Shown here: piece after piece, positions 12,153 to 31,282 of the stretch
Layout of the letters: the number at the start of each line of letters is the position of its first letter
How positions within the stretch are numbered: the first letter of the stretch is position 1
Notes under the pieces: generated by a model
The model's database searches: none
Seen by the model: only the letters and a program-made list of their open reading frames with translations
What the model was told of the DNA's origin: nothing
From: Candidatus Nitrospira inopinata
GTDB lineage: Bacteria > Nitrospirota > Nitrospiria > Nitrospirales > Nitrospiraceae
Length of the DNA: 32,000 bases
Assembly (NCBI RefSeq): GCF_001458695.1
Contig: NZ_LN885086.1
Location: forward strand, 150,001-182,000
Direction: 5' to 3'
Position numbers and translations under genes: made by a program

Positions 12153-12968
12153 TTAAAAGATCGCTTTCGCCAATTCCAGAATGCCGCGCTGCATGTCCGG
12201 ATCGTCGGTGATCGGACGGGCGATCGCCGCATCGCAGGCCTGTTCCGCCGGCACGCCCTGTTTCATCAACAGACCGGCGTAGATCAGCAGCCTGGTGCTG
12301 ACTCCTTCTTCGAGTCCATGGTTTTTGAGATTGCGGACCTTGCCGCCGAGTTTCACCAGACGCTCGGCAATCTCCCGATCGACTCCCGCCTCCCGCTGGA
12401 CCACCGAGGTTTCAATGTCCGACGGAGGATAATCGAACTCGATCGCCATGAACCGCTGCTTCGTGCTTTGCTTGAGATCCTTGAGCGCGCTCTGATAACC
12501 GGGATTATAGGAGATCACCAGCATGAACTCATCGGCTGCTTCGACAAGCTGGCCTTTTTTCTCGATCGGCAACACTCGGCGGTCGTCGCCCAAGGGATGG
12601 ATGATGACGGTGGTGTCCTTCCGAGCCTCCACCACTTCATCCAGATAGACGATCGCGCCGTGCTTGACGCCGATCGTCAGCGGGCCGTCCATCCACACGG
12701 TTTCTTGTCCTTGGAGCAGATAGCGTCCGACGAGATCCGAGGCCGTGAGATCCTCATGACAAGCGACCGTGATCAACGGCCGACCCAGCTTGTACGCCAT
12801 GTGCTGCACGAATCTGGTCTTGCCGCATCCCGTGGGTCCCTTGAGCATCACGGCCATTTTGTTGCGCGCCGCGATTGTGAAGAGGGTCACCTCCCCTCGA
12901 ACCTCGGCATAGAAGGGCTCCCGCTCGATCCGGTACCGCCCGATATCGATTTCCCGTCCCGATGACAT
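12153..12968 (-). CDS. CbbQ/NirQ/NorQ-family MoxR-class AAA+ ATPase
   Basis: 271 aa. Walker A GPTGCGKT and Walker B IVYLDEV. The length and the motif ...ISYNPGYQS...LKQSTKQRF... are typical of CbbQ/NorQ. Confidence 0.85.
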
Positions 12969-13079: not shown

Positions 13080-15392
13080 TTACGCAACGTTGGCCCGATC
13101 CAGCACTTCTCTCACCTTTTGAGCCAGATTGACCGGAGTAAACGGCTTTTGGAGGAAATTGGTCTCCAGATTGACTTCGCCCTTCTTAAAGACCGGATGG
13201 TCGGGATAGCCGGACATATACAGCACCTTGGCTTCCGGTCGCAGCTCCGCCAGTTTGTCGGCCACTTCCGGCCCGCTCATTTGCGGCATCACGACATCGG
13301 TGATCAAGAGATGAATCGGCCCCACGTGTTTGGTCCCGACCAACAGCGCCTCGATACCGTGTCGAGCCACCAGCACGTGATAGCCGTTCATCCGCAAGGT
13401 CTCCTGCACAAGGCCACGGACACCCGGGTCGTCCTCCACCAGCAAAATCGTTTCATGTCCCCGCTCTCCACCGGCTCCCTGCTGAGGCGATTCACTGTCC
13501 TGGGTTCCTTCGACCAGGCGTGGAAAGAAGATCGTGCAGGTCGTCCCTCGCCCCGGTTCACTCTCGATTCCGATCAGACCTCCGCTCTGCCTCACGATAC
13601 CGTACACCGTCGAGAGACCGAGCCCCGTTCCCTTTCCGCTTTCCTTGGTCGTGAAAAACGGCTCGAATAAATGGGCCTGCACTTCCTCGCTCATGCCGTG
13701 ACCGGAGTCTTTGATCGCCAGCATCACGTAGGCGCCTTCTTCCAACGCGACCTTTCCCCGGCGCGTCTCTTTGGCCACCGTGACGTTTCGAGTCTCGATC
13801 GTGAGCCGGCCGCCGGTCGGCATGGCATCCCGCGCGTTGACGGCCAAGTTCATGATGACCTGCTCGATCTGCCCCGGATCGGCTTTGATCGGCCAGACTT
13901 CTTCCTGAAGATCCGTCCAGACCTCGATGATATCCTCGCCGACCAGACGTCGCAGCATACCGTCCATGTTCTTGATGACGGCGTTCAGATCGACGACCTT
14001 GGCCGACACGATTTGGCGCCGGCTGAACGCCAACAACTGTTTCGTGAGCCCGGCGGCCCGATCCGCCGCCTTTTTCACTTCCTCCATGTCCCGGCGCATG
14101 GGATCGCCATGCGGAAGGCGGGTCAAAATCAATTCGCTGTACCCCCGGATGACCGTGAGCAAGTTGTTAAAATCGTGCGCGACGCCGCCGGCCAGGCGGC
14201 CGATCGCTTCCATTTTCTGCGATTGCCGCAATTGGGCTTCCGCTTGACGCAGCGCGTCCTCGGCCCTCGCGCGCTCGCAGAACTGCCCGATTTTGAGAGC
14301 GATGTCCGCCACCATCTTGAGCAGCTCGTCATCGGGCTCCTGGACGTGGCGGCTGAAAAATTCGATCACGCCTTCGACTTCGCCGCCGACACGAATCGGA
14401 AACCCGACCGCGCCACGGAGCCCGGCCTGAGCCGCCACGGCCGACCGGGGTAAGGCAGTATTGTCGGCTACATCCCTCACCCAAATCGGAAATCCTCGTT
14501 CCCACACCCGACCGGGAATTCCCTCTCCCCGCTGAAAGACCAATTCCTCCGTCGCCTTGACGAATTCCTCGGGGTCGCACGACGGGGCTCTCCACTGATG
14601 GAGAGGGCGCAAGACTCCCGCCTGCGCGTCCACCTTCCAAAAGAAACCCAAGTCCCATTCCAAGCTGCCGCCGACCGCCTCCATAATCTGGGGAACGGCC
14701 TCTTGAAGCGAGGTGGCCACGCTCAGCACACGGGTGACGGCATATTGCGCGGCCAGACGCCGCTCGGCCTTGCGGCGGTCCGTAATATCGCGAATGAATG
14801 CGCTGAAAACATACGATTCACCGATACGAGCCGGCGACACCGACAATTCGACCGGAAAATCCCGGCCGCTCTTGTGCCGGGCCATGATCTCGATGCGGCG
14901 ATTCAAGATCGGCCCGACGCCGGTTTGGAGATAGTGGCGCAGCCCCTGTCTATGCGCCTCACGAACGGCCGGGGGAATGACCGTGTCGGCGAGCGGTCGT
15001 CCCACGGCCTCTTCTCTCGTCCAGCCGAAAATGGCCGTCGCTTGGGCGTTCCAATCCGTCACGACGCCGGCGGAGTCGATGATGATCACCGCGTCCAGCG
15101 CCGTCTCGATGATCGCCTGATTCCGTTCCTGACTTTGCAAGAGCGCCGTCTCGGCGGTCCGCGCCCAGGCGATCTCCTGCTGCGCCAGGCGGTACTCCGC
15201 GCGCACGCGAACGCCTGCCCAGACAAGCAGCGCCAACAACGGAAGCCAGACGGCCGCCCCAAGGCCGCGCACGGCGTAGTCAACGAGAAACGTCCCGACG
15301 CCCAACGCGACGACGGCGGCCATCATCGGAAAGGTCGCCCCCCCCTTCCGTCGAGACGCCGTCGAAGATTGTGCGGTCGGATTACGGCTCAT
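13080..15392 (-). CDS. Hybrid sensor histidine kinase (TM - PAS - GAF - HisKA - HATPase_c - receiver)
   Basis: H-box GGVAHDFNNLL; N/G boxes NLAVNARDAMP, DSGHGM, GKGTGLGLS; C-terminal receiver ILLVEDDP...LLITDVVMPQMSG...MSGY. The preferred start ATG 15392 forms an ATGA overlap with the upstream gene's stop. The track ORF extends to 15416. Confidence 0.85.
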   Translation of the reverse strand: MSRNPTAQSSTASRRKGGATFPMMAAVVALGVGTFLVDYAVRGLGAAVWLPLLALLVWAGVRVRAEYRLAQQEIAWARTAETALLQSQERNQAIIETALDAVIIIDSAGVVTDWNAQATAIFGWTREEAVGRPLADTVIPPAVREAHRQGLRHYLQTGVGPILNRRIEIMARHKSGRDFPVELSVSPARIGESYVFSAFIRDITDRRKAERRLAAQYAVTRVLSVATSLQEAVPQIMEAVGGSLEWDLGFFWKVDAQAGVLRPLHQWRAPSCDPEEFVKATEELVFQRGEGIPGRVWERGFPIWVRDVADNTALPRSAVAAQAGLRGAVGFPIRVGGEVEGVIEFFSRHVQEPDDELLKMVADIALKIGQFCERARAEDALRQAEAQLRQSQKMEAIGRLAGGVAHDFNNLLTVIRGYSELILTRLPHGDPMRRDMEEVKKAADRAAGLTKQLLAFSRRQIVSAKVVDLNAVIKNMDGMLRRLVGEDIIEVWTDLQEEVWPIKADPGQIEQVIMNLAVNARDAMPTGGRLTIETRNVTVAKETRRGKVALEEGAYVMLAIKDSGHGMSEEVQAHLFEPFFTTKESGKGTGLGLSTVYGIVRQSGGLIGIESEPGRGTTCTIFFPRLVEGTQDSESPQQGAGGERGHETILLVEDDPGVRGLVQETLRMNGYHVLVARHGIEALLVGTKHVGPIHLLITDVVMPQMSGPEVADKLAELRPEAKVLYMSGYPDHPVFKKGEVNLETNFLQKPFTPVNLAQKVREVLDRANVA

Positions 15393-16882
15393 ATCTCGAG
15401 TTCCGTCACGATCCAATTCTCAATGACGGCGACGGGATGATAGTGCCGTTTGGCCGCGCGCAATCCCGGCAACCCTGCATCATCCATGGCGTTCACGAAC
15501 GCCGCGCCTTCGGCGACCGCGGAGCGGCACGTCTCGCGAAACAGCCACTGGGACAAGCCGGGAATCGACCGATCCGCGACTTCCATCAACACACACCAGG
15601 TGCGCGGCGTGAGCCGGTACCCGAAGGTGTACGCCGCGATTTCATCGTTTGAAACCGCCACCGTCCCCGACAAACCGATGCGCCCATGTTCGGCGAACGC
15701 CAGCGCATGGGCCGCCATCGCATCCTCAAGAAACAGCGAGGCCGCTTCATCGAGAAACCCGGCTCGCTTCTGCTCCGCCCATCGTGCGAGCAGAGCCAGA
15801 CAGCCGTCCTGGTCTTGCTCCCGATACGGCCGCGCGATGACGGTCCGCTCCCGTTCGACGCGATTGCAGAGCGCCCGTTGCGGTTTGTATCGGTCTCCGG
15901 CCAACGTCGCGACGTGCTCGGTTCGGTACAGATAATCCCCTTCTTTTGGCCGACAGCGCAGCCCCAGCCGTTCCAAGATCGGTTTCTGATGGGTCGTCAC
16001 ATTTTCGATCCGGCCGACCGGCGATGTTCCGTTCCATTTTCGCATCAGTTCAAACGCTTCGCCCGCCGTTTCCTCCAACGGCCTCGGTCCCAACGGAGGC
16101 AGCGGCATGAACCAGCCGTCCGGCGATTGCGCGAAGAGAAAGAACGTCCCCCCCGATTCCATCCATCGGTACGACAACTGATTGCTCCAGACATAGTGAT
16201 AGGGGAATGCGTAGGCGGCCAATGTGTCGGGTTGCAACAGGCCCGATGACTCCAGCGCCCGCGCGAACCGCGGCGCGTCCGCCGGTGTAAGGGGATGAAG
16301 AGTGGATGGCATCCGTGTGAGACGGGTCGTCAATGTCGGAAGGGACCGCACAATCACCACGTCTTCCTGAAAAGGGCCGATCAACCGCGGATTGGCCGCG
16401 ATGATCTCAACCCACGATGCCTTCTCCAGCCAACCGGCGACCCGCTCCGCGTAGGCCGTGATCGCCGATGGAACGGAATCGCGCAGATGCGGACACTTGG
16501 CGTCCCATCCGAGCACGATTTCCTTATGGGACTCGTTCCACATGAGCGCCAAAGGATAGAGCCGACAGTCCAACGGCCGGGCATCATAGATGGTGCATCG
16601 ACCAGACAACACATCGAACGCCGGGCAGACGTAGCCCTCGCCCTGTGGATTTTTGACGAGATCGATCTGAGAGCCGGATCGGTCGGGGAAATATTCGCGA
16701 GAGAGACCGTGCGCTTCGGCCTCGGCGATCTCCTGTTCGGTAAAATAGGGACGAAGAAAGCTGTCGGCTTCCGGAAAACGGCAGCAGACGTCACACCGAC
16801 GACAAGCCGAATCGGGTACAAACTGCGGGAGCGCCTTCGGCGACACCGTGAGGAAAGAAGGTTCGCTCGTATGCGTGCCCAT
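15389..16882 (-). CDS. Fusion protein: N-terminal YkgJ-type Cys-cluster (CxxCxxCC) domain plus C-terminal DUF2156 (MprF/lysyl-PG-synthase C-terminal-like, GNAT-fold) domain
   Basis: N-terminus: CRRCDVCCRFPE...YVCPAFD..GRCTIYDARPLDCRLYPL (PF03692-like). C-terminal ~300 aa: FPYHYVW...FFLFAQSPDGWFMPLPPLGP...GDYLY...LAGDRYKPQRALCNR...FLDEA...YTFGY..., which resembles DUF2156. Confidence 0.6.
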   Translation of the reverse strand: MGTHTSEPSFLTVSPKALPQFVPDSACRRCDVCCRFPEADSFLRPYFTEQEIAEAEAHGLSREYFPDRSGSQIDLVKNPQGEGYVCPAFDVLSGRCTIYDARPLDCRLYPLALMWNESHKEIVLGWDAKCPHLRDSVPSAITAYAERVAGWLEKASWVEIIAANPRLIGPFQEDVVIVRSLPTLTTRLTRMPSTLHPLTPADAPRFARALESSGLLQPDTLAAYAFPYHYVWSNQLSYRWMESGGTFFLFAQSPDGWFMPLPPLGPRPLEETAGEAFELMRKWNGTSPVGRIENVTTHQKPILERLGLRCRPKEGDYLYRTEHVATLAGDRYKPQRALCNRVERERTVIARPYREQDQDGCLALLARWAEQKRAGFLDEAASLFLEDAMAAHALAFAEHGRIGLSGTVAVSNDEIAAYTFGYRLTPRTWCVLMEVADRSIPGLSQWLFRETCRSAVAEGAAFVNAMDDAGLPGLRAAKRHYHPVAVIENWIVTELEI

Positions 16883-17006: not shown

Positions 17007-17071
17007 ACCATCTTGCCCGCCTTACTTATGAGAGCGCGCCCTCCTCGCCCTCTTGTCGAACGTTGAGGCCC

Positions 17072-18706
17072 ATGTTAGCATTCAATCGGTTTGCGCCTCC
17101 TGCACGTTTCAGACTGGCGGTCAAAAGGAACCTCCCGTTGGCTCAGACTGAATCCTCCTGTCCCTCACATCAAGAAGCCGAGACGGCGCTGAACCGTTGC
17201 CTTGCCATTGGCCGGTATCTGCGCGATGCCGGACTCTTCACGCCATTTCTCGACCATGATCCACCGGTCTCACCCCAAGCGGCGTCCTGGCGCATCAGTC
17301 CCCGGCCGTTTGTGTTGTCCGCCGACCACATGGCATTTTTCAAAGCCCTGGGGCCGCAGTTGTTTTCGTTCTATCGGGCGTTGAACCGCCTGTACCACGA
17401 AAGCGCCAAGGGAACTCAACCGGCCTGGATCGCCAGGTACCTGGATCAAGGCAAGCCGGACGGCTTGGTCGCTTACAGCCGCATGAAACGGTTCCGGGAA
17501 TCGTTGCCGACCGTCATTCGGCCCGACGTCATTCCCACGCAGGACGGCATGATCATCACGGAACTGGATTCGGTGCCTGGCGGCATCGGCCTGACCGCCG
17601 CGATGAGTCACGCCTACACCGATCATGATCGTGAACACACCGCGTTCAACGCGACTCCCCGATATGAACTGATCGGAGGCGGGGACGGAATGGTGCGCGG
17701 GTTCGCCGCGATGCTGCGGGCGGCCCAACGACAGAACGGCTGCATCGCCATTGTCGTCTCCGACGAAGCGAAGGACTACCGGCCGGAAATGGCCTGGTTG
17801 GCGATCGAGCTCAGACAACAGGGCGTGCCCGTTTGGTGCGTCGAACCGCGGGAGCTTCGTTTTACCGAGGGAGAACTTCGTCTCCATACCGACGAGGGCG
17901 AGCAACGTGTCGGTCTCATCTACCGATTTTACGAACTGTTCGATCTGCCCAACATCCCCAAAGCCGAACTGATCCAGTACGCGGCCAAGAAAGAGTGGGT
18001 GGCGATCACGCCTCCCTACAAACCGGCGCTGGAGGAGAAATCGGCCTTCGCGCTCCTTCATCACCCCGTGCTAAGATCCTATTGGGACAAGCAGCTTGGC
18101 GCCGACTGTTTTCTTCACCTCAGGACCGTTATGCCGAGAACCTGGATCCTTGACCCGGCGCCGATTCCTCCGACCGCCGTCATTGCGGATCTCTACGTGG
18201 GGGAACGCCCCGTTTCCGATTGGACGGATCTCGAGGCAGCCACTCAAAAGGAGCGCCACTTTGTGATCAAGCCGTCGGGCTTTTCGGAACTGGCCTGGGG
18301 AAGCCGAGGGGTATCGATCGGACACGACCTCTCTCAGACGGAGTGGGCCGGCACCCTTCGCCGAGCCCTCGCCTCTTTTCCGACGACTCCCCACGTGTTG
18401 CAGGAATTCCACAAGGGACGTCTGTTCGAAATGGACTATCTGGACGAGCGAACCGGATCAATGGCTCGTATGGCCGGGCGGGCTCGGTTGTCGCCGTACT
18501 ATTTCGTGACTGGCGAAGAGGTCCGGTTGGCTGGTATCCTGGCGACGATCTGTCCGGCCGATAAAAAGATCATCCACGGGATGCAGGACGCGGTGATGAC
18601 GCCCTGCGCCCTCGTCGACGACGCCGCTTCAGTGAACGGCGAAGACGCGCGACGCACGACGACGGATGGTCGGACCGGCTCCCCGGACAGAGGACGCCGC
18701 GCGTAA
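17072..18706 (+). CDS. Uncharacterised ATP-grasp-like ligase (glutathionylspermidine-synthase / circularly permuted ATP-grasp-like)
   Basis: ~545 aa. ...VIRPDVIPTQDGMIITELDSVPGGIGLTAAM..., then RHFVIKPSGFSELAWGSRGVSIG...HVLQEFHKG...ARLSPYYFV...KKIIHGMQDAVMTPCA, which follows the ATP-grasp strand/loop pattern. Family assignment is by eye only. The track ORF starts at TTG 17063; ATG 17072 is preferred. Confidence 0.45.
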   Translation: MLAFNRFAPPARFRLAVKRNLPLAQTESSCPSHQEAETALNRCLAIGRYLRDAGLFTPFLDHDPPVSPQAASWRISPRPFVLSADHMAFFKALGPQLFSFYRALNRLYHESAKGTQPAWIARYLDQGKPDGLVAYSRMKRFRESLPTVIRPDVIPTQDGMIITELDSVPGGIGLTAAMSHAYTDHDREHTAFNATPRYELIGGGDGMVRGFAAMLRAAQRQNGCIAIVVSDEAKDYRPEMAWLAIELRQQGVPVWCVEPRELRFTEGELRLHTDEGEQRVGLIYRFYELFDLPNIPKAELIQYAAKKEWVAITPPYKPALEEKSAFALLHHPVLRSYWDKQLGADCFLHLRTVMPRTWILDPAPIPPTAVIADLYVGERPVSDWTDLEAATQKERHFVIKPSGFSELAWGSRGVSIGHDLSQTEWAGTLRRALASFPTTPHVLQEFHKGRLFEMDYLDERTGSMARMAGRARLSPYYFVTGEEVRLAGILATICPADKKIIHGMQDAVMTPCALVDDAASVNGEDARRTTTDGRTGSPDRGRRA

Positions 18707-18713
18707 ACTTGGC

Positions 18714-19049
18714 ATGCCCATCACGCTGTACCACGTAGATTGGTGTCCCGACTGTCTCGTCGTCCGCCGCAAACTGGCCGACTTGGCGCTCGACTACCAT
18801 GCCGTGACCGTCCCGGACATCAGGCGACTGCGGACGCAAGTCCACCAAGTGTCGGGCCAATACTACGTGCCGGTTCTCCAAGACGGAGACCTCGTCCTGA
18901 CGGAGACCGCCGACATCCTGGCCTACCTGGATGAACGGTACGGGTCCGCCGGGACGAACGACGAGACCGAGCAATTCCGGTCGCAGGCGAGAACGACGCC
19001 GGAGTCGCCGGAAGCCGGCGACGACTACCCCTCTTGCCGAATCAACTGA
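18714..19049 (+). CDS. Glutaredoxin-like / GST-N-terminal thioredoxin-fold protein (CPDC active site)
   Basis: MPITLYHVDWCPDCLVVRRKLADLALDYHAVTV...YYVPVLQDGDLVLTETADILAYLDERYG. The CxxC is at 18744-18755. It starts 7 nt after the preceding stop. Confidence 0.7.
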   Translation: MPITLYHVDWCPDCLVVRRKLADLALDYHAVTVPDIRRLRTQVHQVSGQYYVPVLQDGDLVLTETADILAYLDERYGSAGTNDETEQFRSQARTTPESPEAGDDYPSCRIN

Positions 19050-19069
19050 TTCCAACCAAAGGCCGAGTC

Positions 19070-20263
19070 ATGGAAGACTGGAGAACAATCCTGGCACAGA
19101 GCATCGTCAAACCCAAAGACCTTGCGGATCGTTTCGGTCTGGACGCGGAGGAGATCGAAGCCATCGTCGGCCCCTACCCGATGCGGATCACGCCGACTGT
19201 GTTGAGCACGATCAAAGCCAAGGACGACCCGATCTGGAAGCAAGTCGTCCCCGACCCTGCCGAACTGGCCGATCTCGACGCGGAAGCCGACCCGCTGGAA
19301 GAAGACCTCATGAGTCCGGTGCCGCACCTGGTCCATCGGTACCCGGACCGGGTGTTGCTCATGGTCACGAATCAATGTCCCATCTACTGCCGGTTCTGCA
19401 CGAGAAAACGGCTGGTCGGCAAGCCGGGCTTTCTCAAGAAGGGAGAATTGGAGCGGGCCGTCGCCTACCTGCGGGAGCACACGGAAGTGCGGGACGTGAT
19501 TCTGTCGGGCGGCGATCCCTTGCTGCTCCCTGACCATTTGCTCGAACGGGTGCTGAAAGCGCTCCGCTCCATTCCGCATCTGGAATTGATCCGCATCGGC
19601 ACCAGGGTCCCCGGCACCCTGCCGCAACGGATCACGCACAAGCTCTGCGAAACGATCAAAAAATACCACCCGATCTACATGAACCTGCACTTCAACCATC
19701 CCGACGAACTGACGCCCGACGTCAAGGCCGCCTGCGGCATGTTGGCCGACGCGGGCGTGCCGCTCGGCGCGCAAACCGTCTTATTGAAAGGCGTCAACGA
19801 CGATCCGGATGTCATGAAGCGACTGGTGCATCAACTGCTGCTCGCGCGGGTGAAGCCGTATTACCTCTATCAAGCGGATCTGACGAAAGGCACCAACCAT
19901 TTTCGGACGACGGTCGAGACGGGCCTGAACATCATCAAATCGCTCCAAGGCCATACCAGCGGCATGGCGGTCCCCCACTTCGTCATCGACGCACCCGGGG
20001 GCGGCGGCAAAATCCCGTTGCTGCCCGGCGATTATTTGGTTCATCTCGACGAAGACGGAGTCGTCTTGCGCAATTACGAGAACAAGACCTACCATTATCC
20101 GCAACCGAGGACCGACGGTGGTCGGGAATTGCCCATGGTCGGCGCCCTGTCCTCGCGGGAGGGGCCGTCCGGCTCCTTCTCGCCGTGCGGAGACGGGCTC
20201 TCGGATTCCGACGGCTTCGCGGCCTGGGGCAACGGCTGCGCCGGAGACAGGGACGACCTGTGA
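19070..20263 (+). CDS. kamA: KamA-family radical SAM aminomutase (lysine 2,3-aminomutase-like)
   Basis: HRYPDRVLLMVTNQCPIYCRFCTRKRLVG (CxxxCxxC at 19376-19399), VILSGGDPLLL, RIGTRVP, NLHFNHPDE, PLGAQTVLLKGVNDD, YYLYQADL..GTNHFR, PHFVIDAPGGGGKIP. A ~55-aa low-complexity C-terminal tail follows. Confidence 0.85.
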   Translation: MEDWRTILAQSIVKPKDLADRFGLDAEEIEAIVGPYPMRITPTVLSTIKAKDDPIWKQVVPDPAELADLDAEADPLEEDLMSPVPHLVHRYPDRVLLMVTNQCPIYCRFCTRKRLVGKPGFLKKGELERAVAYLREHTEVRDVILSGGDPLLLPDHLLERVLKALRSIPHLELIRIGTRVPGTLPQRITHKLCETIKKYHPIYMNLHFNHPDELTPDVKAACGMLADAGVPLGAQTVLLKGVNDDPDVMKRLVHQLLLARVKPYYLYQADLTKGTNHFRTTVETGLNIIKSLQGHTSGMAVPHFVIDAPGGGGKIPLLPGDYLVHLDEDGVVLRNYENKTYHYPQPRTDGGRELPMVGALSSREGPSGSFSPCGDGLSDSDGFAAWGNGCAGDRDDL

Positions 20264-21417
20264 TCACCTCCTTGCCCCATGCCGGTATCCTCCCATCCCA
20301 GGACATCAGGCGGCTGATCGCCGGGCAGGCCATTGTCGCGTCTCCGGCGATCGAAGATCGCCAGATTCAGCCGGCGAGTCTCGATCTGCGTCTGGGGCGA
20401 AAAGCTTATCGGCTCATCAGCAGCTTTCTGCCGGAGCTGTCGGCCATCTCGTCACGTCTGGACGTGCTCGATTTTTATCAGTCCGACTTGGTGATGTACG
20501 AGATGGATTTGACGGAGGGCGCCATCCTGGAAAAGGGCCACGTCTATTTGGTGCCGCTGTTGGAGCGCCTGAACCTTCCGAAGACCGTCCACGCTCGGGC
20601 CAATCCCAAGAGCACGACCGGCCGGTTGGACGTCTTTACCCGCGTCGTCACGGATTTGACCTCCGGGTTCGACGAAATCCGTTCGGGCTATCAAGGCCCG
20701 CTCTTTTTGGAAGTGGTGCCCCGTTCGTTCGCGATCAAGGTTTCGACGGGCCAGTCGCTGAATCAGATTCGCTTCATCCGCGGAGACGCGACGGTTTCCG
20801 ACAGGGCGCTGCGTTCGCTCCATCGGCGGACCTCGCTCCTCCATCACAACGATGCGTCCCGATCCGTCGTGGAAACCAGCGACGTTCGCACCGACCACGG
20901 CCTGTTTCTCCGCATCGACCTCAAGGGCGAGGACCGGTCCGACGCCCGGATCATCGGGTACCGCGCGAAGAAAAACAGCCACGTCATCGATCTCGCCAAA
21001 GTCGGCCATTACGCGGCGACGGATTTTTGGGAGCCGCTCCGCCGACATCGGCAGGGCAGTTTGCTGCTGGAGCCGGAAGAGTTTTACATCCTCGCCTCGA
21101 AGGAACGGATCCGCGTCCCGGCCGGCTACGCGGCCGAAATGGTCGCCTACGAAGCGGCCTGCGGCGAGCTGCGCACCCACTACGCGGGATTCTTCGATCC
21201 GGGGTTCGGCTACGGAGGAAAGGGAGAGATCAAAGGAACCCAGGTCGTTTTGGAAGTCCGGCCTCACGACGTGCCCTTCCTCATTCACGACGGGCAAACG
21301 TTTTTCAAAGTCATCTATCACCGCATGGCCGACAAGCCGGATCGTCTGTACGGAGTGGGCCTCGGTTCCTCCTATCAACAACAGACGCTCACGTTGAGCA
21401 AACATTTCAAGGCCTAG
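20260..21417 (+). CDS. Long-form 2'-deoxycytidine 5'-triphosphate deaminase-like protein (PF06559-type, tandem dUTPase/Dcd beta-barrel halves)
   Basis: GTG 20260 overlaps the KamA stop (GTGA). ITSLPHAGILPSQDIRRLI...IQPASLDLRLG. There are two Dcd-like halves, FDEIRSGYQGPLFLEVVPRSF...LNQIRF and FDPGFGYGGKGEIKGTQVVLEVRPHDVPF...FFKVIY. The upstream 25 codons of the track ORF are probably not translated. Confidence 0.7.
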   Translation: MITSLPHAGILPSQDIRRLIAGQAIVASPAIEDRQIQPASLDLRLGRKAYRLISSFLPELSAISSRLDVLDFYQSDLVMYEMDLTEGAILEKGHVYLVPLLERLNLPKTVHARANPKSTTGRLDVFTRVVTDLTSGFDEIRSGYQGPLFLEVVPRSFAIKVSTGQSLNQIRFIRGDATVSDRALRSLHRRTSLLHHNDASRSVVETSDVRTDHGLFLRIDLKGEDRSDARIIGYRAKKNSHVIDLAKVGHYAATDFWEPLRRHRQGSLLLEPEEFYILASKERIRVPAGYAAEMVAYEAACGELRTHYAGFFDPGFGYGGKGEIKGTQVVLEVRPHDVPFLIHDGQTFFKVIYHRMADKPDRLYGVGLGSSYQQQTLTLSKHFKA

Positions 21418-21420
21418 CCC

Positions 21421-21831
21421 ATGACACAGTCCGATCCGCAACCGCCCGAAGAGAAAGAGCCGCAGCCGCTCGGCCGGTCGACCGGATCGGAGCAGGAAGG
21501 CGGCGATCAGCACATGAGAGTGCTGGGCAAGATGGTCGGCACGGCCTTCATGTTTCTCGGGTTTCTGCAAGTCTTTCTCTCGATCAGCGGCGGATTCGAG
21601 TTGAGCGGCGTCGTGGCCATGCTGTTGTATTTTTGCGGGCTGGCCATCTGGTCCAACGCGGTCATCGAACAGCCCTTGCTTCGATGGATCGTCACGGTCG
21701 GCGCGATCGGCGTGGCCGTCGGGTTTCTGCAGTTCGGGGAGATTCTTTTTTGGCACAAGCAGGTGGTGTTTTGGGGCACCGCCGTCCTCGTGCTCTACTT
21801 CATGTTCAACGAGCCCAAAAAACAGGCCTAA
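21421..21831 (+). CDS. Small integral membrane protein, hypothetical
   Basis: 136 aa. A hydrophilic Pro/Glu-rich N-terminus is followed by ~4 hydrophobic helices (MVGTAFMFLGFLQVFLSI, VVAMLLYFCGLAIW, IVTVGAIGVAVGFLQF, VVFWGTAVLVLYFMF). It starts 3 nt after the Dcd-like stop. An alternative start is ATG 21514. Confidence 0.5.
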   Translation: MTQSDPQPPEEKEPQPLGRSTGSEQEGGDQHMRVLGKMVGTAFMFLGFLQVFLSISGGFELSGVVAMLLYFCGLAIWSNAVIEQPLLRWIVTVGAIGVAVGFLQFGEILFWHKQVVFWGTAVLVLYFMFNEPKKQA

Positions 21832-21918
21832 CCGTCGAACAGGCTTGACCGATTATCGGATCGACCGTCACGCTTCACACCGCCGGCACCGGCCCGGCGA
21901 TCCTTACGCCATGGCGCC

Positions 21919-22611
21919 ATGATCGTTTCCGTCATCATCCCCACGTTGAACGAACAGGCAGTCCTGGCCGAGACCCTTGCCCACACGGGTGAGCTGGGTT
22001 TTGACGAGATCGTGGTCGTGGATGGAGGCAGTGTGGATGAGACCGTCGCGATCGCTCAAACCCTTTGCCCCGACCTGACCGGCGCACGGGTGATCACAGC
22101 CCCCCAAGGGCGGGCTCGCCAAATGAATGAAGGAGCCAAGGCCTGCCGCGGTGAAGGGCTGCTTTTTCTGCACGCCGACACGCGCTTGCCGCCGGACGCC
22201 AAAGGACTCATCATCTCGGCTCTGGCCGATTCCGGCGTCGCCGGAGGACGCTTCGATGTCCGATTCGACAGCCCTTCGCCGTGGGCGGGAATGATCAGCA
22301 CCCTGATGAATCTCCGCTCGCGATGGACCGGCATCGCCACCGGTGATCAAGCCATCTTCGTTCGCCGTCGGGTGTTCGAGGGCCTCGGCGGCTTTTCCGA
22401 CATTCCGCTTATGGAAGACATCGAGTTCAGCAAACGACTCAAACGAGCCGGTCGAATCGCCAGGCTGCGGCAGACCGTCACCACATCCTTTCGACGGTGG
22501 GAACGACAGGGTCCGCTCCGAACCATCACATTGATGTGGACCTTGCGATTGTTGTATTGGCTTGGTGTGAGTCCCCATCGGTTGAAAAACTTCTACGCGG
22601 TCGTCCGATGA
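21919..22611 (+). CDS. Family-2 glycosyltransferase-like protein of the TIGR04283 type ('transferase 2, rSAM/selenodomain-associated')
   Basis: MIVSVIIPTLNEQ...EIVVVDGGSVDET...GRARQMNEGA...LLFLHADTRLP...GGRFDVRF...TGDQAIFVRRRVFEGLGGF.DIPLMEDIEFSKRL...TSFRRW. Recognised from memory of this family's conserved pattern. Confidence 0.7.
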   Translation: MIVSVIIPTLNEQAVLAETLAHTGELGFDEIVVVDGGSVDETVAIAQTLCPDLTGARVITAPQGRARQMNEGAKACRGEGLLFLHADTRLPPDAKGLIISALADSGVAGGRFDVRFDSPSPWAGMISTLMNLRSRWTGIATGDQAIFVRRRVFEGLGGFSDIPLMEDIEFSKRLKRAGRIARLRQTVTTSFRRWERQGPLRTITLMWTLRLLYWLGVSPHRLKNFYAVVR

Positions 22612-23381
22612 AACCACCGGCTTCACGCTCAGCTCCGTCCCGCCACACCGCCGCGCTGGTCGTTTTCGCCAAAGCGCCGATCCCCGGCCAGGTCAAAACG
22701 CGGCTCTGTCCTGCCCTGATGCCTGACGAAGCGGCCACGCTCCACGGGAGCTTTGTCCTCGACACAGTGGAGCGTACGAAGGCCGCAGTCGGCCGATTCA
22801 ATCTGCCGGTCGATCGGTTCCTCGCCTGCGCTCCCTTTTCAACTCACCCTTTTTTTAAGGTCCTGGAGGCTCGACACGGAGTCCGGCTCATCGATCAAGA
22901 GGGAGACGATCTCGGACAGCGAATGGCCGGTGTGTTCGATCGGCTCTTTGCGCAAGGGTACCGATCCATGGTCCTCGTCGGCACCGATGTCCCGTCGCTG
23001 CCGCTCGAAGAATATCGACGGGCCTTCGGCCTGTTGGAATCGCATGATCTTGTATTGGGCCCGGCTCTGGACGGAGGGTATTATTTGCTGGGGCTCACCA
23101 GACCGGCACCGGCTCTCTTCACCGACATTCCCTGGTCTACCGGTGACGTGCGAAGGAGAACGGAGGAGAAGGCTCGTTCCTTGGGACTGACCATCGTCCT
23201 GACGGCTCCCTGGCGTGACGTTGATACGATCGAGGATCTCACGGCCTTGATCGATGCCAATAGGCTCGACGCCGCCAAGCCTAAACCGGAGCGGGTCTTT
23301 TCGAGCCGGACGACCGGGGCGTTGCAATTGATCGCCGAACGGCTGCGCGTCAGGGCCGCACGGCAATCGTCATGCCCTTAG
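22608..23381 (+). CDS. DUF2064 / TIGR04282-type nucleotidyltransferase-fold protein ('transferase 1, rSAM/selenodomain-associated')
   Basis: ATGA overlap with the preceding stop. ALVVFAKAPIPGQVKTRLCPAL.PDEAA.L...GDDLGQRM...VLVGTDVPSLP...VLGPALDGGYYLLGL...IPWSTGDV...DVDTIEDL. Confidence 0.7.
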   Translation: MKPPASRSAPSRHTAALVVFAKAPIPGQVKTRLCPALMPDEAATLHGSFVLDTVERTKAAVGRFNLPVDRFLACAPFSTHPFFKVLEARHGVRLIDQEGDDLGQRMAGVFDRLFAQGYRSMVLVGTDVPSLPLEEYRRAFGLLESHDLVLGPALDGGYYLLGLTRPAPALFTDIPWSTGDVRRRTEEKARSLGLTIVLTAPWRDVDTIEDLTALIDANRLDAAKPKPERVFSSRTTGALQLIAERLRVRAARQSSCP

Positions 23382-23394
23382 CGAGAGGACTATC

Positions 23395-24129
23395 ATGAAC
23401 CAGCACGTTGCGCTCATCACGGGCGGGGCCAAAGGCATCGGCCGAGCCATCGCCCTCGACTTGGCCGCCAGAGGATGGAAGATTGCTTTTTGCTATCGCA
23501 CCAGCGAAGCCGAGGCCCAGGCCACCGCGTCTGCCATTAGGGAGCGGGGTGGCTTGTCCCTGCCGATCCAATGCGATGTGTCGGACCCGGCCTCGGCCAA
23601 GCGGCTGGCGGCGCAAGTCGAAGAGACATGGGGAAGAATCGATGCGTTGATCAACGGCGCCGGCCCGTACCATCGAATCAATCTGTTCGAGGAAACCGTG
23701 GATGGCTGGAACGAGATGTTCGACGGAAACCTCCATCCCATTTTTTACCTGGCCCAGGCCGTGGCGCCCGGCATGAAGGCACGCAAGAGCGGCCGCATCA
23801 TCAATTTCAGCATGGCCAACGCGGACCAGATGGTGGCGCAACCGGACGTGACCGCCCATTATATCGCCAAGGCCGGCGTGCTCATCTTGACCCGCACCCT
23901 GGCCAAACTGCTGGCGCCGCATGGGATTACAGTCAACGCCGTCTCGCCCGGCTTCATCGACTCCGGGAGCGCGCCGCCGTCGGAACTGGCCGCCGTGGTC
24001 AAGCGCATTCCAGCCGGCTACATCGGCACGGTGGATGACGTGGTCGCCGTCGTGCGATACCTGTTGAGCGACGAAGCGCGATACGTCAACGGAGCGAACG
24101 TTCAGATCAGCGGCGCATGGGGCGTCTAG
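23395..24129 (+). CDS. SDR family oxidoreductase (FabG-like)
   Basis: ALITGGAKGIGRAI (TGxxxGxG), NGAG, YIAKAG (YxxxK), VNAVSPGFI. A GAGAGGA Shine-Dalgarno lies upstream. Confidence 0.85.
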   Translation: MNQHVALITGGAKGIGRAIALDLAARGWKIAFCYRTSEAEAQATASAIRERGGLSLPIQCDVSDPASAKRLAAQVEETWGRIDALINGAGPYHRINLFEETVDGWNEMFDGNLHPIFYLAQAVAPGMKARKSGRIINFSMANADQMVAQPDVTAHYIAKAGVLILTRTLAKLLAPHGITVNAVSPGFIDSGSAPPSELAAVVKRIPAGYIGTVDDVVAVVRYLLSDEARYVNGANVQISGAWGV

Positions 24130-26653: not shown

Positions 26654-28015
26654 ATGGAATCCATGGCCGCTACATCCATTCAACAAAATCACGACCGAAC
26701 CAGATGCGACGTGCTGGTCGTGGGGGGCGGCCCTGCCGGGGCGGCCGTCTCCACTTTGCTCGCGGAAAAGGGCTGGAACGTCCACGTCCTGGAAAAAGAC
26801 CGCCATCCGCGCTTCCACATCGGCGAATCGTTGCTTCCACATTCGCTCCCGATGCTCGAACGACTGGGTGTCCTGTCGGAAATCGAAAAAATCGGCATCG
26901 TCAAGTACGGAGCCGAGGTCGTCTCTCCCTACCATGGCCGATCCCGCATTCTGTACTTCTCCAAGGCGCTCGACGGCTCGCAACCGTTTGCATATCAAGT
27001 CAAACGGGCGGAATTCGACAAGATCTTGATCGACAACGCCGTGGCCAAGGGAGTCCAGCTCCATGAAGGGGTCCGAGCCAAGCACGTGGAGTTTCGTCCC
27101 GGCTCGACGCACTTGGTTCAGGCCGACGATCAAACCGGACGATCGCTGACGTACGAAGCCGATTTCGTGATCGACGCCAGCGGGCGCGACACCTTCCTCT
27201 CGGCCCAGCTCGGCGGCAAATCTCGCAACCCCCATCACAACAGCGCGGCGATCTTCGGCCATTTTGAAGGGGTCCGACGCCTGCCGGGACGGGACGAGGG
27301 CAACATCAGCATCGTGTGGTTCGACCACGGCTGGTGGTGGATCATTCCATTTAAGGACGGCACGACCAGCGTCGGCGCCGTGTGCTGGCCTTCCTACATC
27401 AGCACGAGAAAGGTCCCGTTGGAACAATTCCTGTGGGATACGATCGCCCTCTGCCGGCCGGTGGCCGAACGGATGGCGAGCGCGAAATTACTGGGACAGG
27501 CCTATGCCGCCGCGAATTATTCCTACCGGCGAACGACCATGAGAGGCGACGGCTATCTGATGGTGGGCGACGCCTTCGCCTTCATCGATCCCGTGTTTTC
27601 CAGCGGCGTCCACCTGGCGCTCAACAGCGCCACGCTGGGAGCCGAGGTCGTGGATGCCTACTTGAGAAAGTCGCCTGAATATCCGCATCGGGCGAGGGAG
27701 TTCGAGCGGCTCGTCCGCCTCGGCGTCAACACGTATTCCTGGTTTATTTATCACTTCACCCAACCGGCCTTCCGCGCCTTGTTCATGTCGGAAGGGTCGA
27801 TCTTCAAGATGGAAGAGGCCGTGCTCTCGATCCTGGCGGGCGATGCCTTCGGGAAGTCGCCGACCCAAATTCCGCTGTTCCTGTTCAAAACGGCCTATTA
27901 TCTGGTTTACCTGTTCAACTTCAGGGACAATCAAGCCGCGCATCGGCGACGACTCCGAGGCGTGCCGGAAACCGTCACCGCGCTGAAGGACTATGCCGTT
28001 CCGCCGCCCTCATAA
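26654..28015 (+). CDS. FAD-dependent halogenase-like oxidoreductase
   Basis: DVLVVGGGPAGAA (GxGxxG), PRFHIGESLLP, and the halogenase signature WxWxIP as WWWIIP (27332-27349). A Lys in ...GIVKYGAE sits at the expected position downstream of GES. An alternative start is ATG 26663. Confidence 0.7.
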   Translation: MESMAATSIQQNHDRTRCDVLVVGGGPAGAAVSTLLAEKGWNVHVLEKDRHPRFHIGESLLPHSLPMLERLGVLSEIEKIGIVKYGAEVVSPYHGRSRILYFSKALDGSQPFAYQVKRAEFDKILIDNAVAKGVQLHEGVRAKHVEFRPGSTHLVQADDQTGRSLTYEADFVIDASGRDTFLSAQLGGKSRNPHHNSAAIFGHFEGVRRLPGRDEGNISIVWFDHGWWWIIPFKDGTTSVGAVCWPSYISTRKVPLEQFLWDTIALCRPVAERMASAKLLGQAYAAANYSYRRTTMRGDGYLMVGDAFAFIDPVFSSGVHLALNSATLGAEVVDAYLRKSPEYPHRAREFERLVRLGVNTYSWFIYHFTQPAFRALFMSEGSIFKMEEAVLSILAGDAFGKSPTQIPLFLFKTAYYLVYLFNFRDNQAAHRRRLRGVPETVTALKDYAVPPPS

Positions 28016-28036
28016 CGCGATCGAGGAACGACGCGC

Positions 28037-29086
28037 ATGACATCGGCATCGACTCGCCGAGTGCTCTCCACCGGCCATGGCGTGCAACGGACACCGTCCC
28101 ATTTACACGTCTCGTACGTCGAACCGCGTACATTGCCGTCCCTGTTTCATTCGGTGTCGGCACCGAAACCCATGGCGGTCGTTTCTTTCGGGCAACCCCT
28201 GCCTTACGACGTCTCCTGCCCCGTCATCGCTCCCGACCTTCCTCAGATTGACGGCTCCCCGTTGATTGAAGTTTGGACGTCTGACCGGCCTGTTCACACC
28301 TCGACCGACGAGAGACTCTCTACGGCCGTGAACGGGGAATGGCTCATCGGTTCCCTCAGCCTGGACGAGCCGCCGGATCAGCCGCTGGACGCGCTGACCT
28401 ATGAGGCGTATCGGACGATCCTCCGCCATCTCAACGATGCCGGCTATCCACACCTGTGCCGCGTCTGGAACTACTTCCCTCGCATCAATGACGACCAAGA
28501 CGGACTGGAACGGTATCGGCGGTTCTGCGTCGGCCGGCACCGGGCGCTGGCGGAATCGCTGCCCGGCTTCCCCGGCTCTCTGCCCGCCGCCACGGCGGTC
28601 GGGACACAATCCGGTCCGCTCCAGATCATGTTTCTGGCAAACACCGAACCGGGCGCCCATCTCGGCAACCCAAGACAGATGAACGCGTACGAGTACCCCT
28701 CGGAGTATGGCCCCCGCAGCCCTTCGTTCGCGCGGGCGACCTTGTGCCAATCCGAACAGGGCACCACTCTTTTCATCGCCGGCACGGCCAGCGTCGTCGG
28801 ACACGCCAGCCGACACATCGGCCGACCGGCCGACCAGACGCGCGAGTCGGTTTGCAATATCCTGACCGTTCTCGAGCGGGCCGGAGCGATCGGCAACGCC
28901 GACTTTCTCGACGAGGCAGGCCATCCCATGTACAAAGTGTATGTGCGAGACGCCGGCTCTCTCCCTGAAATTCGCGGCGCGCTTGAGCGATCGCCCCTGT
29001 CCTCGCAGCTCCTTCTGTTCTTGCGGGGAGATCTGTGCCGAAAAGAGCTGCTGGTCGAAATCGAAGGCCTGATCTTTTCCGAGTAG
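28037..29086 (+). CDS. xanB2: FkbO/Hyg5/XanB2-family chorismatase (hydroxybenzoate synthase)
   Basis: 349 aa; ...YPHLCRVWNYFPRINDDQDGLERYRRFCVGRHRAL...PAATAVG...LFIAGTASVVGH...KVYVRD... matches the chorismatase/RidA-like family. A GAGGAA Shine-Dalgarno lies upstream. Confidence 0.7.
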   Translation: MTSASTRRVLSTGHGVQRTPSHLHVSYVEPRTLPSLFHSVSAPKPMAVVSFGQPLPYDVSCPVIAPDLPQIDGSPLIEVWTSDRPVHTSTDERLSTAVNGEWLIGSLSLDEPPDQPLDALTYEAYRTILRHLNDAGYPHLCRVWNYFPRINDDQDGLERYRRFCVGRHRALAESLPGFPGSLPAATAVGTQSGPLQIMFLANTEPGAHLGNPRQMNAYEYPSEYGPRSPSFARATLCQSEQGTTLFIAGTASVVGHASRHIGRPADQTRESVCNILTVLERAGAIGNADFLDEAGHPMYKVYVRDAGSLPEIRGALERSPLSSQLLLFLRGDLCRKELLVEIEGLIFSE

Positions 29087-29095
29087 TCACGCGCC

Positions 29096-30022
29096 ATGGA
29101 ATCCGGTTCCTTTCGACTCATCGGACAAGAAACCAACGAAGCCGCCGTTCGGCGGTTTCACTTCACGATCGACTGTGATTGGGTGCCCGGCTCGCAAGCC
29201 GGTCTGGAACGGCTGTTAACCCTTTGCGACGCGCATCGAATCAGGGGAACGATCTTTTTTGCCGGCCGATTCGCCGAATCTTACCCGGACCTGGTCCGGG
29301 ACTGTCATCGGCGCGGACATGAACTGGGCACTCACGGCTGGGCCCACGGCAGTTTGGAAGAGGATGAAGATTTTCGGCTGGCTGGCTACGAGCAACAGCG
29401 AGAGTGGATCCGGCTCGCGACCGACGCCGTCGAAAGCGCGTCCGGCATCCGCCCGATCATTTTCAGGGCGCCTAATCTTCGCATCGGCGAAGCGACCTTT
29501 CGGGCCTTGGCCGACGAAGGGTATCGATTCGATTCCTCCGTCCCCGCCAGGCGTTTCGACATGGGATTCGGACGAGTGCACTATACCGACTACTTTTGGG
29601 CTCCGCTCGCGCCGTATCGCCCCTCCGCTCAAGATCTGGGTCGACCCGGTCAACACGCCATCGTGGAGATCCCGCCCTCGGCCTGCCTGTTTCCCGTCAA
29701 TCTCGCCGCTCTGCGGGTGCTGGGGCTCCCGGCGCTCACCTCCATGATCCGTTGGATCGGCCGGCGGTCTCCTCACCTGGTGTTCTACTGCCATCCGTTT
29801 GAAGTGCTCCACGCCAAGGACCAGCGATTCCCCAAGAACATGTCCAAATGGAATCAGCGGGGCATGAGCCCGGCCAATCTCTCCCTCGTGGACGCTTTCA
29901 TCGAGTCGGTGCTCGACCTCGGCTATGCCTCGGACACGATCTTCGGCGCCGTCCCTCGGCAAATCGGCTTCCATCGCCCAATCGTACCGGAAGCCGTCGG
30001 CTGTCAATCCGATCATGCTTAA
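29096..30022 (+). CDS. Polysaccharide deacetylase (NodB-homology) family protein
   Basis: FHFTIDCDW..., GTIFFAGRF..., HELGTHGWAHG, FRAPNLRIG: NodB-type motifs. Confidence 0.7.
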   Translation: MESGSFRLIGQETNEAAVRRFHFTIDCDWVPGSQAGLERLLTLCDAHRIRGTIFFAGRFAESYPDLVRDCHRRGHELGTHGWAHGSLEEDEDFRLAGYEQQREWIRLATDAVESASGIRPIIFRAPNLRIGEATFRALADEGYRFDSSVPARRFDMGFGRVHYTDYFWAPLAPYRPSAQDLGRPGQHAIVEIPPSACLFPVNLAALRVLGLPALTSMIRWIGRRSPHLVFYCHPFEVLHAKDQRFPKNMSKWNQRGMSPANLSLVDAFIESVLDLGYASDTIFGAVPRQIGFHRPIVPEAVGCQSDHA

Positions 30023-30041
30023 CAATAAGGAGGGTCATGAG

Positions 30042-30452
30042 ATGAAACGGATGCGGTCCATCACGGTTTTGCTGTGCGTCATGTTCATCGCGGTCGTCGG
30101 TTGCCGCGGCGGAGGGCAGATTTATAACGTAAAAGACGCGCCGGTCGCGACCGCCACCGGCAAAGAGGCGACGATGGATCAGATCACCAAGGCCATCGTC
30201 GAGGCCGGATCGGGGCTGGGGTGGACCATGGCGGTGGTCAAACCCGGACAGATCGTCGCCACGCTTCACATCAGAAGCCACACGGCGATCGTCGAGATCC
30301 CCTACACGACCAAAACCTACAGCATCATTTACAAGGACAGTACGAACTTGAAATACGACGCCGAAAAACAAACCATTCACGAAAACTATCGCGGATGGAT
30401 TCAGAACCTGGATAAAGCCATCAAAAGCCGCTTGTCCGGGTTGGGAGTCTGA
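30042..30452 (+). CDS. Lipoprotein, hypothetical
   Basis: AAGGAGG Shine-Dalgarno 8 nt before ATG 30042. MKRMRSITVLLCVMFIAVVGC lipobox. Confidence 0.65.
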   Translation: MKRMRSITVLLCVMFIAVVGCRGGGQIYNVKDAPVATATGKEATMDQITKAIVEAGSGLGWTMAVVKPGQIVATLHIRSHTAIVEIPYTTKTYSIIYKDSTNLKYDAEKQTIHENYRGWIQNLDKAIKSRLSGLGV

Positions 30453-30472
30453 CCGCGCCTCGTTTCGCCGCT

Positions 30473-31279: not shown

Positions 31280-31282
31280 CCT

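Follow-up and report, generated by a model that had tools for sequence, protein, structure and literature searches.

Gene structure of the array

We analysed a 32,000-nt window of Candidatus Nitrospira inopinata DNA (positions 150,001 to 182,000 of contig NZ_LN885086.1, read on the forward strand; all coordinates below are window positions) that carries an array of eight closely packed plus-strand genes, hereafter g1 to g8. The first three, which we treat as its core, encode an uncharacterised ligase with the predicted circularly permuted ATP-grasp fold of glutathione synthetase (GSS) and GspS (g1, 17138..18706, initially annotated as 17072-18706), a small glutaredoxin/GST-N-like thiol-disulfide oxidoreductase with a CPDC motif (g2, 18714..19049), and a KamA-family radical S-adenosylmethionine (SAM)/pyridoxal phosphate (PLP) aminomutase with lysine-type substrate residues (g3, 19070..20263). 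They are followed by a tandem two-domain protein of the dCTP deaminase (Dcd) family that overlaps g3 by 4 nt (g4, 20260..21417), a small hydrophobic (membrane) protein of 136 aa (g5, 21421..21831), a TIGR04283 glycosyltransferase of the GT2 family, the first gene past an 87-nt gap (g6, 21919..22611), a DUF2064/TIGR04282 protein with a CofC-like nucleotide-diphospho-sugar transferase fold that overlaps g6 by 4 nt (g7, 22608..23381), and a FabG-like short-chain dehydrogenase (g8, 23395..24129). An initial annotation, made from the DNA letters, had read the eight genes as a candidate pathway to a single small-molecule product. Its gene coordinates agree with the listing of open reading frames (ORFs) of the window, its seven junctions (7, 20, -4 at GTGA, 3, 87, -4 at ATGA, and 13 nt from g1 to g8) proved exact, and profile searches against Pfam and NCBIfam bore out its family assignments for seven of the genes.

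The G+C content at third codon positions of the array genes ranges from 0.65 to 0.80, in support of their reading frames. A 576-aa plus-strand ORF (20118-21848) that runs over g4 and g5 in another frame reaches 0.43, against 0.76-0.80 for the real genes there, and is therefore an out-of-frame shadow ORF of the kind typical in GC-rich DNA. The g1 ORF opens at 17063/17072, and homologues of its product start at 'MAQTE', which corresponds to TTG 17138; this TTG, rather than ATG 17072, is probably the true start. A scan of the window returned 12 terminator-like sites (8.6 expected) and two promoter-like sites (1.8 expected), both at chance level, and no terminator-like site fell within any intergenic gap of the array. 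The tight, operon-like packing that had been proposed, with its short or overlapping junctions, was upheld. An Rfam search matched no RNA family, riboswitches included, either to the window or to the leader of g1. The arrangement is not due to chance, because N. moscoviensis and 33 other species-level genomes have the same array.

The core ligase, glutaredoxin and aminomutase

The product of g1 is 100% identical to an entry annotated as 'conserved protein of unknown function', and its UniRef name refers to a GspS pre-ATP-grasp domain. Searches against Pfam and NCBIfam returned no family for it at E<=0.01: CP_ATPgrasp_2 reached 12.6 bits (cut-off 32), and this model and GSP_synth each yielded weak matches in two of 44 members of the g1 family, the best GSP_synth match (E 4e-4) lying below thresholds. 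At the sequence level, g1 falls outside the GSS/GspS families (PF03738, PF14403 and the GSS families). As a single sequence it found no match among PDB sequences, and a g1 family profile retrieved only peroxiredoxins from the PDB, at E above 1, that is, by chance. An exhaustive search over 1.84 billion cluster representatives recovered 1,114 relatives at E<=1e-3, which makes g1 part of a family of more than 1,100 representative clusters (50% identity, E<=0.001), present in more than 580 species-level genomes and devoid of curated annotation.

Structure prediction placed this family at the fold level. A first AlphaFold model, built from 14 close Nitrospira sequences, was discarded as unusable (pLDDT 46), whereas a model from an 88-sequence alignment reached a pLDDT of 92.4 and a pTM of 0.91. 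In a Foldseek search of the PDB the latter gave 43 matches at E<=1e-3, every one of them in the group formed by GSS, homoglutathione synthetase (hGSS), GspS, TryS, YgiC, YjfC, 3n6x and 3k1t, with near full-length matches at TM 0.60-0.69; classical ATP-grasp enzymes appeared only at E of about 1e-2. The best matches, with the same circularly permuted ATP-grasp, were GSS 5oes (E 1.8e-16) followed by hGSS 3kal and human GSS 2hgs, all at E 1e-16 to 1e-14. The GspS/TryS group (Mfla_0391, that is 3n6x, then YjfC, YgiC and GspS of E. coli, and TryS) came as a second tier at E 5e-15 to 2e-7. The matched clade includes potato, human and yeast GSS, soybean hGSS, nematode GSS-like effectors and Mfla_0391. 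The initial annotation had called g1 an ATP-grasp-like ligase by eye, and this call was right at the fold level. As judged from the predicted model, the fold of g1 is that of an ATP-grasp-type amide ligase, and g1 founds an uncurated family inside the GSS/GspS branch.

The chemistry of these structural relatives bears on what g1 might join. Homoglutathione synthetase extends gamma-Glu-Cys with beta-alanine, which is a beta-amino acid, and enzymes of the GspS group couple the carboxylate of a peptide to an amine of a polyamine, a chemistry that would suit beta-lysine as the amine. However, g1 departs from both groups. It shares only 12-14% identity with GSS, matches no GSS Pfam family, is bacterial, and has its gene linked to that of a lysine aminomutase, not of a gamma-glutamylcysteine ligase; from the GspS group it differs in its sub-threshold hidden Markov model matches, its lack of an amidase domain and its other gene context.

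Directly after ectB, a plasmid of Pantoea agglomerans encodes a distant homologue of g1 (E 4e-17 and 98.9% probability in hhalign). A member of the g1 family thus stands for a second time beside an enzyme that forms a diamino acid, here the diaminobutyrate transaminase EctB, which lends independent support to a role as a diamino-acid ligase. The surroundings of this homologue (plasmid pNBBC01-5, NZ_CP099733.1, 6626-17179; locus L092) look like a biosynthetic cluster in their own right, with genes for EctB, the g1-family ligase, ThiF, a TauD dioxygenase, a GNAT protein, CapA, an ATP-grasp protein, a PurD-like ligase, an MFS transporter and an amidase.

The second core protein, g2, scored above cut-off with both GST_N_3 (54 bits, cut-off 22) and Glutaredoxin (34.5 bits, cut-off 22.9), and its closest PDB matches are the glutathione-binding N-terminal domains of glutathione S-transferases and Grx2. 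The CxxC and VPVL cis-Pro motifs are kept in 66 orthologues, the former as WCPxC in Nitrospirales, as the classical CPYC in deep-branching Nitrospirota and as CGYC in Nitrospinota.

The third, g3, belongs to the KamA family (TIGR00238, 301.4 bits, cut-off 199.2), carries the CxxxCxxC cluster motif as CPIYCRFC, and matches the lysine 2,3-aminomutase of Clostridium subterminale (2a5h) at 1e-107. None of the substrate-specific models reached its cut-off, whether for AblA (TIGR03820, 437.3 against 525.4), EpmB (TIGR03821, 241 against 369.3), glutamate 2,3-aminomutase (405 against 650) or arginine 2,3-aminomutase (322 against 600). At the residue level, g3 keeps the equivalents of Arg134, Asp293, Asp330 and Lys337 of 2a5h, the first three of which mark the lysine substrate class. 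In the clostridial enzyme, Arg134 binds the lysine carboxylate, Asp293 and Asp330 the epsilon-ammonium group and Lys337 the PLP, whereas glutamate 2,3-aminomutase has both aspartates replaced. All 61 KamA orthologues linked to g1 retain the CxxxCxxC motif and the Arg134, Asp293 and Asp330 equivalents, and 60 of them also that of Lys337. We infer from these conserved residues that lysine is the substrate of g3. A search for KamA homologues retrieved solely Nitrospirota sequences, all at >=80% identity, and added no further context.

Both g2 (111 aa) and g3 (397 aa) of N. inopinata end in low-complexity C-terminal tails (18950-19049 and 20110-20263, respectively) that are missing from the orthologues. 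Several g2 orthologues measure 79-81 aa and others bear short tails, and most g3 orthologues are about 374 aa long.

Conservation of the core and of the genes around it

One genome per GTDB species was scanned with a degenerate pattern, and at least 586 of these genomes proved to carry a g1 relative. The closest 80 loci, together with five fetched by protein identity, were compared by tblastn with all window proteins (85 loci in total), and patterns were counted over the 53 non-redundant informative loci that have at least 9 kb downstream of g1. All of g2-g8 follow g1 in the same order and strand in 34 of these 53 loci. Three further loci are missing only g8, with or without g2 or g5; five have g2 and g3 only, one has g3 and g4, and ten have none of g2-g8. 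The full arrays are all from Nitrospiraceae, Nitrospirales or Nitrospirota, with g1 identity down to 52% and with varying outer flanks, and KamA is conserved at about 80% across the order.

Outside Nitrospirales, only the three genes of the core recur. Three Nitrospinota loci (L078, L082 and L083) and two of deep Nitrospirota (L056 and L066) have g1-g2-g3 and none of g4-g8 within 10 kb, and their flanks are unrelated to those of the array, encoding a Lon substrate-binding-domain protein, a DUF502 protein, a spermine-synthase-like protein, RNase G, endonuclease III, GDPD and CARDB proteins. Genes g4-g8 are restricted to Nitrospirales, with one exception: Dcd in a distant Nitrospirota locus (L069), where g1-KamA-Dcd has cytochrome genes on one side and a SurA-like gene on the other. 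One candidate locus with only g1-g3 (L053, CP070743.1, 11690-13367) was discounted: its KamA is truncated (~286 aa) and abuts a RuBisCO large-subunit-like fragment, which makes it probably an assembly chimera, or else a recent rearrangement. The initial annotation had asked whether the eight-gene set co-occurs across phyla; conservation extends over Nitrospirales for the full array, to Nitrospinota and deep Nitrospirota for g1-g3 and to Poribacteria for g1 alone.

Two genes on the minus strand upstream of g1 belong to the conserved block as well. The nearer and divergent one (15389..16882), a possible partner of the array, combines a YkgJ-type CxxCxxCC domain with an LPG_synthase_C domain (DUF2156, MprF C-terminal-like; both by Pfam) and matches 2hqy at 2e-14. 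It is present in 29 of 33 full arrays and is split into two genes in L004, and its architecture resembles that of the tRNA-dependent Fe-S aminoacyl transferase BlsK from the blasticidin S pathway. Farther upstream, a CbbQ/NorQ-type AAA+ ATPase gene (12153-12968) recurs in 32 of the 33 at 71-95% identity; it is as firmly tied to the array as g4-g8, without an evident functional connection. The conserved Nitrospirales block is thus one of about ten genes, at least one of which has no obvious link to the rest.

The genes downstream of the core have their own histories. The g4 protein is a tandem dCTP deaminase (NF005734/PRK07559, 501.2 against a cut-off of 283) made of DCD_N (226 bits) and DCD_C (261 bits) domains, and it matches the Agrobacterium structure 2r9q at 1e-100. 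For this long form, no assay of enzyme activity is known from the literature. Tandem Dcd genes stand alone in alphaproteobacterial replicons such as that of Bosea. The KamA and Dcd genes overlap in N. inopinata (20260-20263), in N. moscoviensis (L001, 13054-13057) and in the distant Nitrospirota locus mentioned above (L069, 12485-12504), which suggests translational coupling. For g5, which has hydrophobic segments, no Pfam or NCBIfam family scored above cut-off, and orthologues (28-91% identity) were found only in arrays that also carry g4. As for g8, adh_short_C2 gave 179 bits and the best PDB matches were all FabG reductases; a role as a TmpR-like pteridine/dihydrofolate reductase, considered because of the link to Dcd and thymidylate synthesis, was rejected at 226 bits (the best NCBIfam score) against a cut-off of 325. 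This protein is a generic FabG-like short-chain dehydrogenase/reductase and the loosest member of the array, its gene being absent within 9 kb in L050, L058 and L063.

The products of g6 (TIGR04283, 263.5 against 182) and g7 (TIGR04282, 200 against 134; DUF2064, 117 bits; match to 3cgx at 2e-31) form the TIGR04283/TIGR04282 pair, both scoring above cut-off. NCBIfam now labels this pair 'arsenosugar biosynthesis glycosyltransferase'. Indeed, an Acinetobacter plasmid has the same overlapping GT2-DUF2064 order together with ArsS, and on a Thiodictyon plasmid a TIGR04282 gene adjoins ArsS with a GT2 gene nearby, and neither locus has KamA, g1 or Dcd. The Nitrospirales array is unlike these arsenosugar loci in that KamA is the sole radical SAM neighbour of g6-g7, and we found no ArsS or adjacent methyltransferase gene among the scanned ORFs of the window or the genes called in four of the compared loci (L001-L004).

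Foreign genes also interrupt the array. In one locus (L045, 15097-16802) an N4/N6 DNA methylase and a SmaI-like endonuclease, a type II restriction-modification pair, lie between g5 and g6, at the site that corresponds to the 87-nt gap of the window. In two others (L028, 16260-18302; L049, 16426-18456) a Tll0287-GAF-GGDEF diguanylate cyclase gene sits between g7 and g8 and overlaps both, and N. moscoviensis has a GGDEF gene between the DUF2156 gene and g1. Since g5|g6 and g7|g8 tolerate such insertions, and since GT2/DUF2064 and Dcd live independently elsewhere, we infer that g4-g8 are separable from the core.

These patterns bear directly on the proposal that the eight genes, possibly joined by the DUF2156 gene, make up a single pathway, comparable to that of blasticidin S, to a nucleotide, sugar or glycolipid decorated with a beta-amino acid. 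KamA would then supply the beta-amino acid, g1 would ligate it, the Dcd-like protein would provide or bind a pyrimidine nucleotide, the GT2, DUF2064 and dehydrogenase proteins would build the sugar, and the DUF2156 protein would add a tRNA-derived aminoacyl group. The collinear array with its tight junctions, which persists at g1 identities as low as 52% despite changing outer flanks, speaks for this proposal, as do the recurrence of the KamA-Dcd overlap in a second lineage and the frequent presence of the Cys-cluster/DUF2156 gene with its BlsK-like architecture. At the domain level, the Nitrospirales array and the blasticidin S genes (BlsG, BlsI and BlsK) have three elements in common, namely an aminomutase of the KamA type, an amide ligase and, nearby, a gene of the Cys-cluster plus DUF2156 type, the last being an element that strengthens the comparison beyond what the initial annotation had drawn. 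However, the array is conserved vertically over a whole order of chemolithoautotrophs and not patchily, unlike an antibiotic gene cluster, and g1 is GSS-like and not a classical ATP-grasp enzyme. In addition, the g1 fold suggests peptide and not nucleoside substrates, Nitrospinota and deep Nitrospirota make do with g1-g3, restriction-modification and GGDEF genes are embedded in the array, the Dcd and GT2/DUF2064 genes occur on their own elsewhere, and some arrays dispense with g8. BlsK itself is a [3Fe-4S] tRNA-dependent leucyl transferase that targets the beta-amino group of a beta-arginine moiety (PMC12710036). A single eight-gene pathway is therefore partly supported and keeps some weight, but we consider it unlikely. 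Only g1-g2-g3 recur outside Nitrospirales, and a nucleotide, sugar or glycolipid product is not indicated, with the g1 fold and the identity of g2 pointing instead to a glutathione-like peptide.

At the opposite extreme, the array could consist of unrelated housekeeping genes kept together by the inherited gene order of Nitrospirales. The CbbQ, histidine kinase, GGDEF cyclase and restriction-modification genes that are conserved beside the array or tolerated inside it would fit this explanation, as would the independent life of g4, g6-g7 and g8 elsewhere. However, inheritance alone would not explain the linkage of the core, because g1-g2-g3 stand together again, between wholly different flanks, in deep Nitrospirota and in another phylum, and the 7, 20 and -4 nt junctions suggest translational coupling. 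Mere inherited adjacency is thus less likely, and we hold it improbable.

Downstream of the array, the window holds a second candidate small-molecule locus (26654-31915). On the plus strand it comprises a gene for an FAD-dependent halogenase-like protein or monooxygenase (CmlS 192 bits, QhpG 157 bits, both under cut-off), an FkbO/Hyg5-type chorismatase gene (203 bits, cut-off 325) and a polysaccharide-deacetylase-like gene; GT2 and short-chain dehydrogenase/reductase genes follow on the minus strand.

A candidate beta-lysine conjugate

Between these extremes, we favour, tentatively and at somewhat less than even odds, a composite array in which the core g1-g2-g3 makes beta-lysine and links it through an amide bond, while other units have been added around it. 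In this scheme g3 would convert L-lysine to beta-lysine, and g1 would use ATP to form an acyl-phosphate and then amide-bond beta-lysine to a partner molecule, the product being probably a hitherto undescribed beta-lysine conjugate. The Dcd protein, the membrane protein, the GT2/DUF2064 pair, the dehydrogenase, and the DUF2156 and CbbQ proteins would be separate units that became fixed around the core in the ancestor of Nitrospirales; g4-g8 and the other added units would probably be co-transcribed with the core but not needed for its reaction.

The partner would most likely be a thiol peptide of the gamma-glutamyl-cysteine type, yielding a beta-lysine-capped analogue of glutathione that g2 would use as its redox substrate. 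Such a partner is favoured because gamma-Glu-Cys or glutathione is what the closest structural relatives of g1 lengthen or cap, one of them with beta-alanine, and because a glutaredoxin is the constant third gene of the module. It is possibly correct, and it is the weakest step of the scheme. Taken further, Nitrospirota nitrite oxidisers (comammox bacteria included) and Nitrospinota would use a new low-molecular-weight thiol, a glutathione analogue ended or capped by beta-lysine that g1 makes and g2 uses; gamma-Glu-Cys-beta-Lys and glutathionyl-beta-lysine may serve as examples. This extended proposal is a speculative one, and we rate its chances as low.

The pairing of a KamA-family aminomutase with an ATP-dependent ligase also recalls EpmB-EpmA, and KamA and g1 could be non-orthologous counterparts of these enzymes that place beta-lysine on a lysine of elongation factor P (EF-P) or of another protein. 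The strong conservation of KamA across Nitrospirales would suit such a modification, and the widespread g1 family, often amid housekeeping or translation genes (L005, beside rpmB and ruvA; L088, near a class II aminoacyl-tRNA synthetase), would suit a housekeeping protein modifier. Nevertheless, the ligase is of the ATP-grasp type, whereas EpmA is a class II lysyl-tRNA synthetase (LysRS) paralogue, and KamA scores far closer to AblA than to EpmB. No LysRS-like domain was found among the window ORFs scanned, efp is not nearby, and a crude scan for the EF-P loop motif came up empty both in the window and across the 85 loci. Moreover, the structural relatives of g1 ligate small peptides and not proteins, and the adjacent glutaredoxin would have no role in beta-lysylation, so that we regard this explanation as less likely and, on balance, improbable.

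Similarly, the module might produce an osmolyte, an analogue of N-epsilon-acetyl-beta-lysine capped by g1 or by the GNAT-fold DUF2156 protein. AblA is the equivalog closest to KamA, whose lysine-binding residues are kept, and the module is common to marine Nitrospinota and to Nitrospirales and is unaccounted for among the osmolyte genes in published genome papers on nitrite-oxidising bacteria (NOB). However, KamA stays below the AblA cut-off, and in place of an adjacent AblB-type GNAT gene there are a ligase and a glutaredoxin, the latter unexpected in an osmolyte operon. The array also occurs in many non-marine Nitrospira, including metagenome-assembled genomes named for groundwater or soil, and a GSS-type ATP-consuming ligase is not known from any osmolyte pathway. 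This is again less likely, and the least probable of the explanations weighed here. The initial annotation had already set KamA apart from the ablA-ablB and epmA-epmB-efp contexts, and this held up: the scanned ORFs of the window encode no GNAT AblB, LysRS paralogue or EF-P. The module belongs to none of the AblAB, EpmAB and arsenosugar systems, and probably not to the blasticidin system either, and is an aminomutase plus ligase module with a new ligase family.

Several observations weigh against the composite array with a beta-lysine-ligating core. Within the surroundings of g1 that the loci cover, no gamma-glutamylcysteine ligase or other glutathione gene adjoins the module. Nine Poribacteria genomes and one further locus (L081) carry a lone g1 (47-51% identity) amid housekeeping genes, as do farther relatives (about 32-37% identity), and in a neighbour-joining tree of g1 the Poribacteria clade is nested among KamA-linked clades; hence g1 may not need the KamA product, unless KamA lies elsewhere in these bacteria. 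KamA-linked and stand-alone g1 proteins differ at only five weak positions, none of them clearly informative. Sequence similarity to GSS is negligible, an hhalign comparison of the g1 profile with human GSS (100% identical in sequence to 2hgs) giving a 65-column local alignment with a probability of 0.3%, in which K378-P-S-G of g1 aligns to the K364 glycine-rich loop of GSS, so that no inference about the substrate site can be drawn from it. The eight-gene order together with the DUF2156 and CbbQ genes has persisted although g1 diverged to 52% identity, and KamA overlaps Dcd in two separate lineages, which leaves some functional tie that the composite array does not explain. Finally, the glutaredoxin could instead serve the oxygen-sensitive cluster of KamA.

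The literature searched contains no description of the g1-g2-g3 module or of the array, so that the module appears undescribed; the NOB genome papers within it name glutaredoxins, yet are silent on glutathione, beta-lysine and the cluster itself. In soils, wastewater plants and the ocean, nitrite is oxidised mostly by Nitrospira and Nitrospina, and several of them lack catalase and superoxide dismutase, yet live in oxygenated water. While the array also illustrates that operon-like order conserved across a whole bacterial order is no proof of one pathway, the module within it provides an initial clue to the function of the g1 protein family and is a testable candidate for the thiol chemistry of nitrite oxidisers or, failing that, for a new beta-lysine conjugate.

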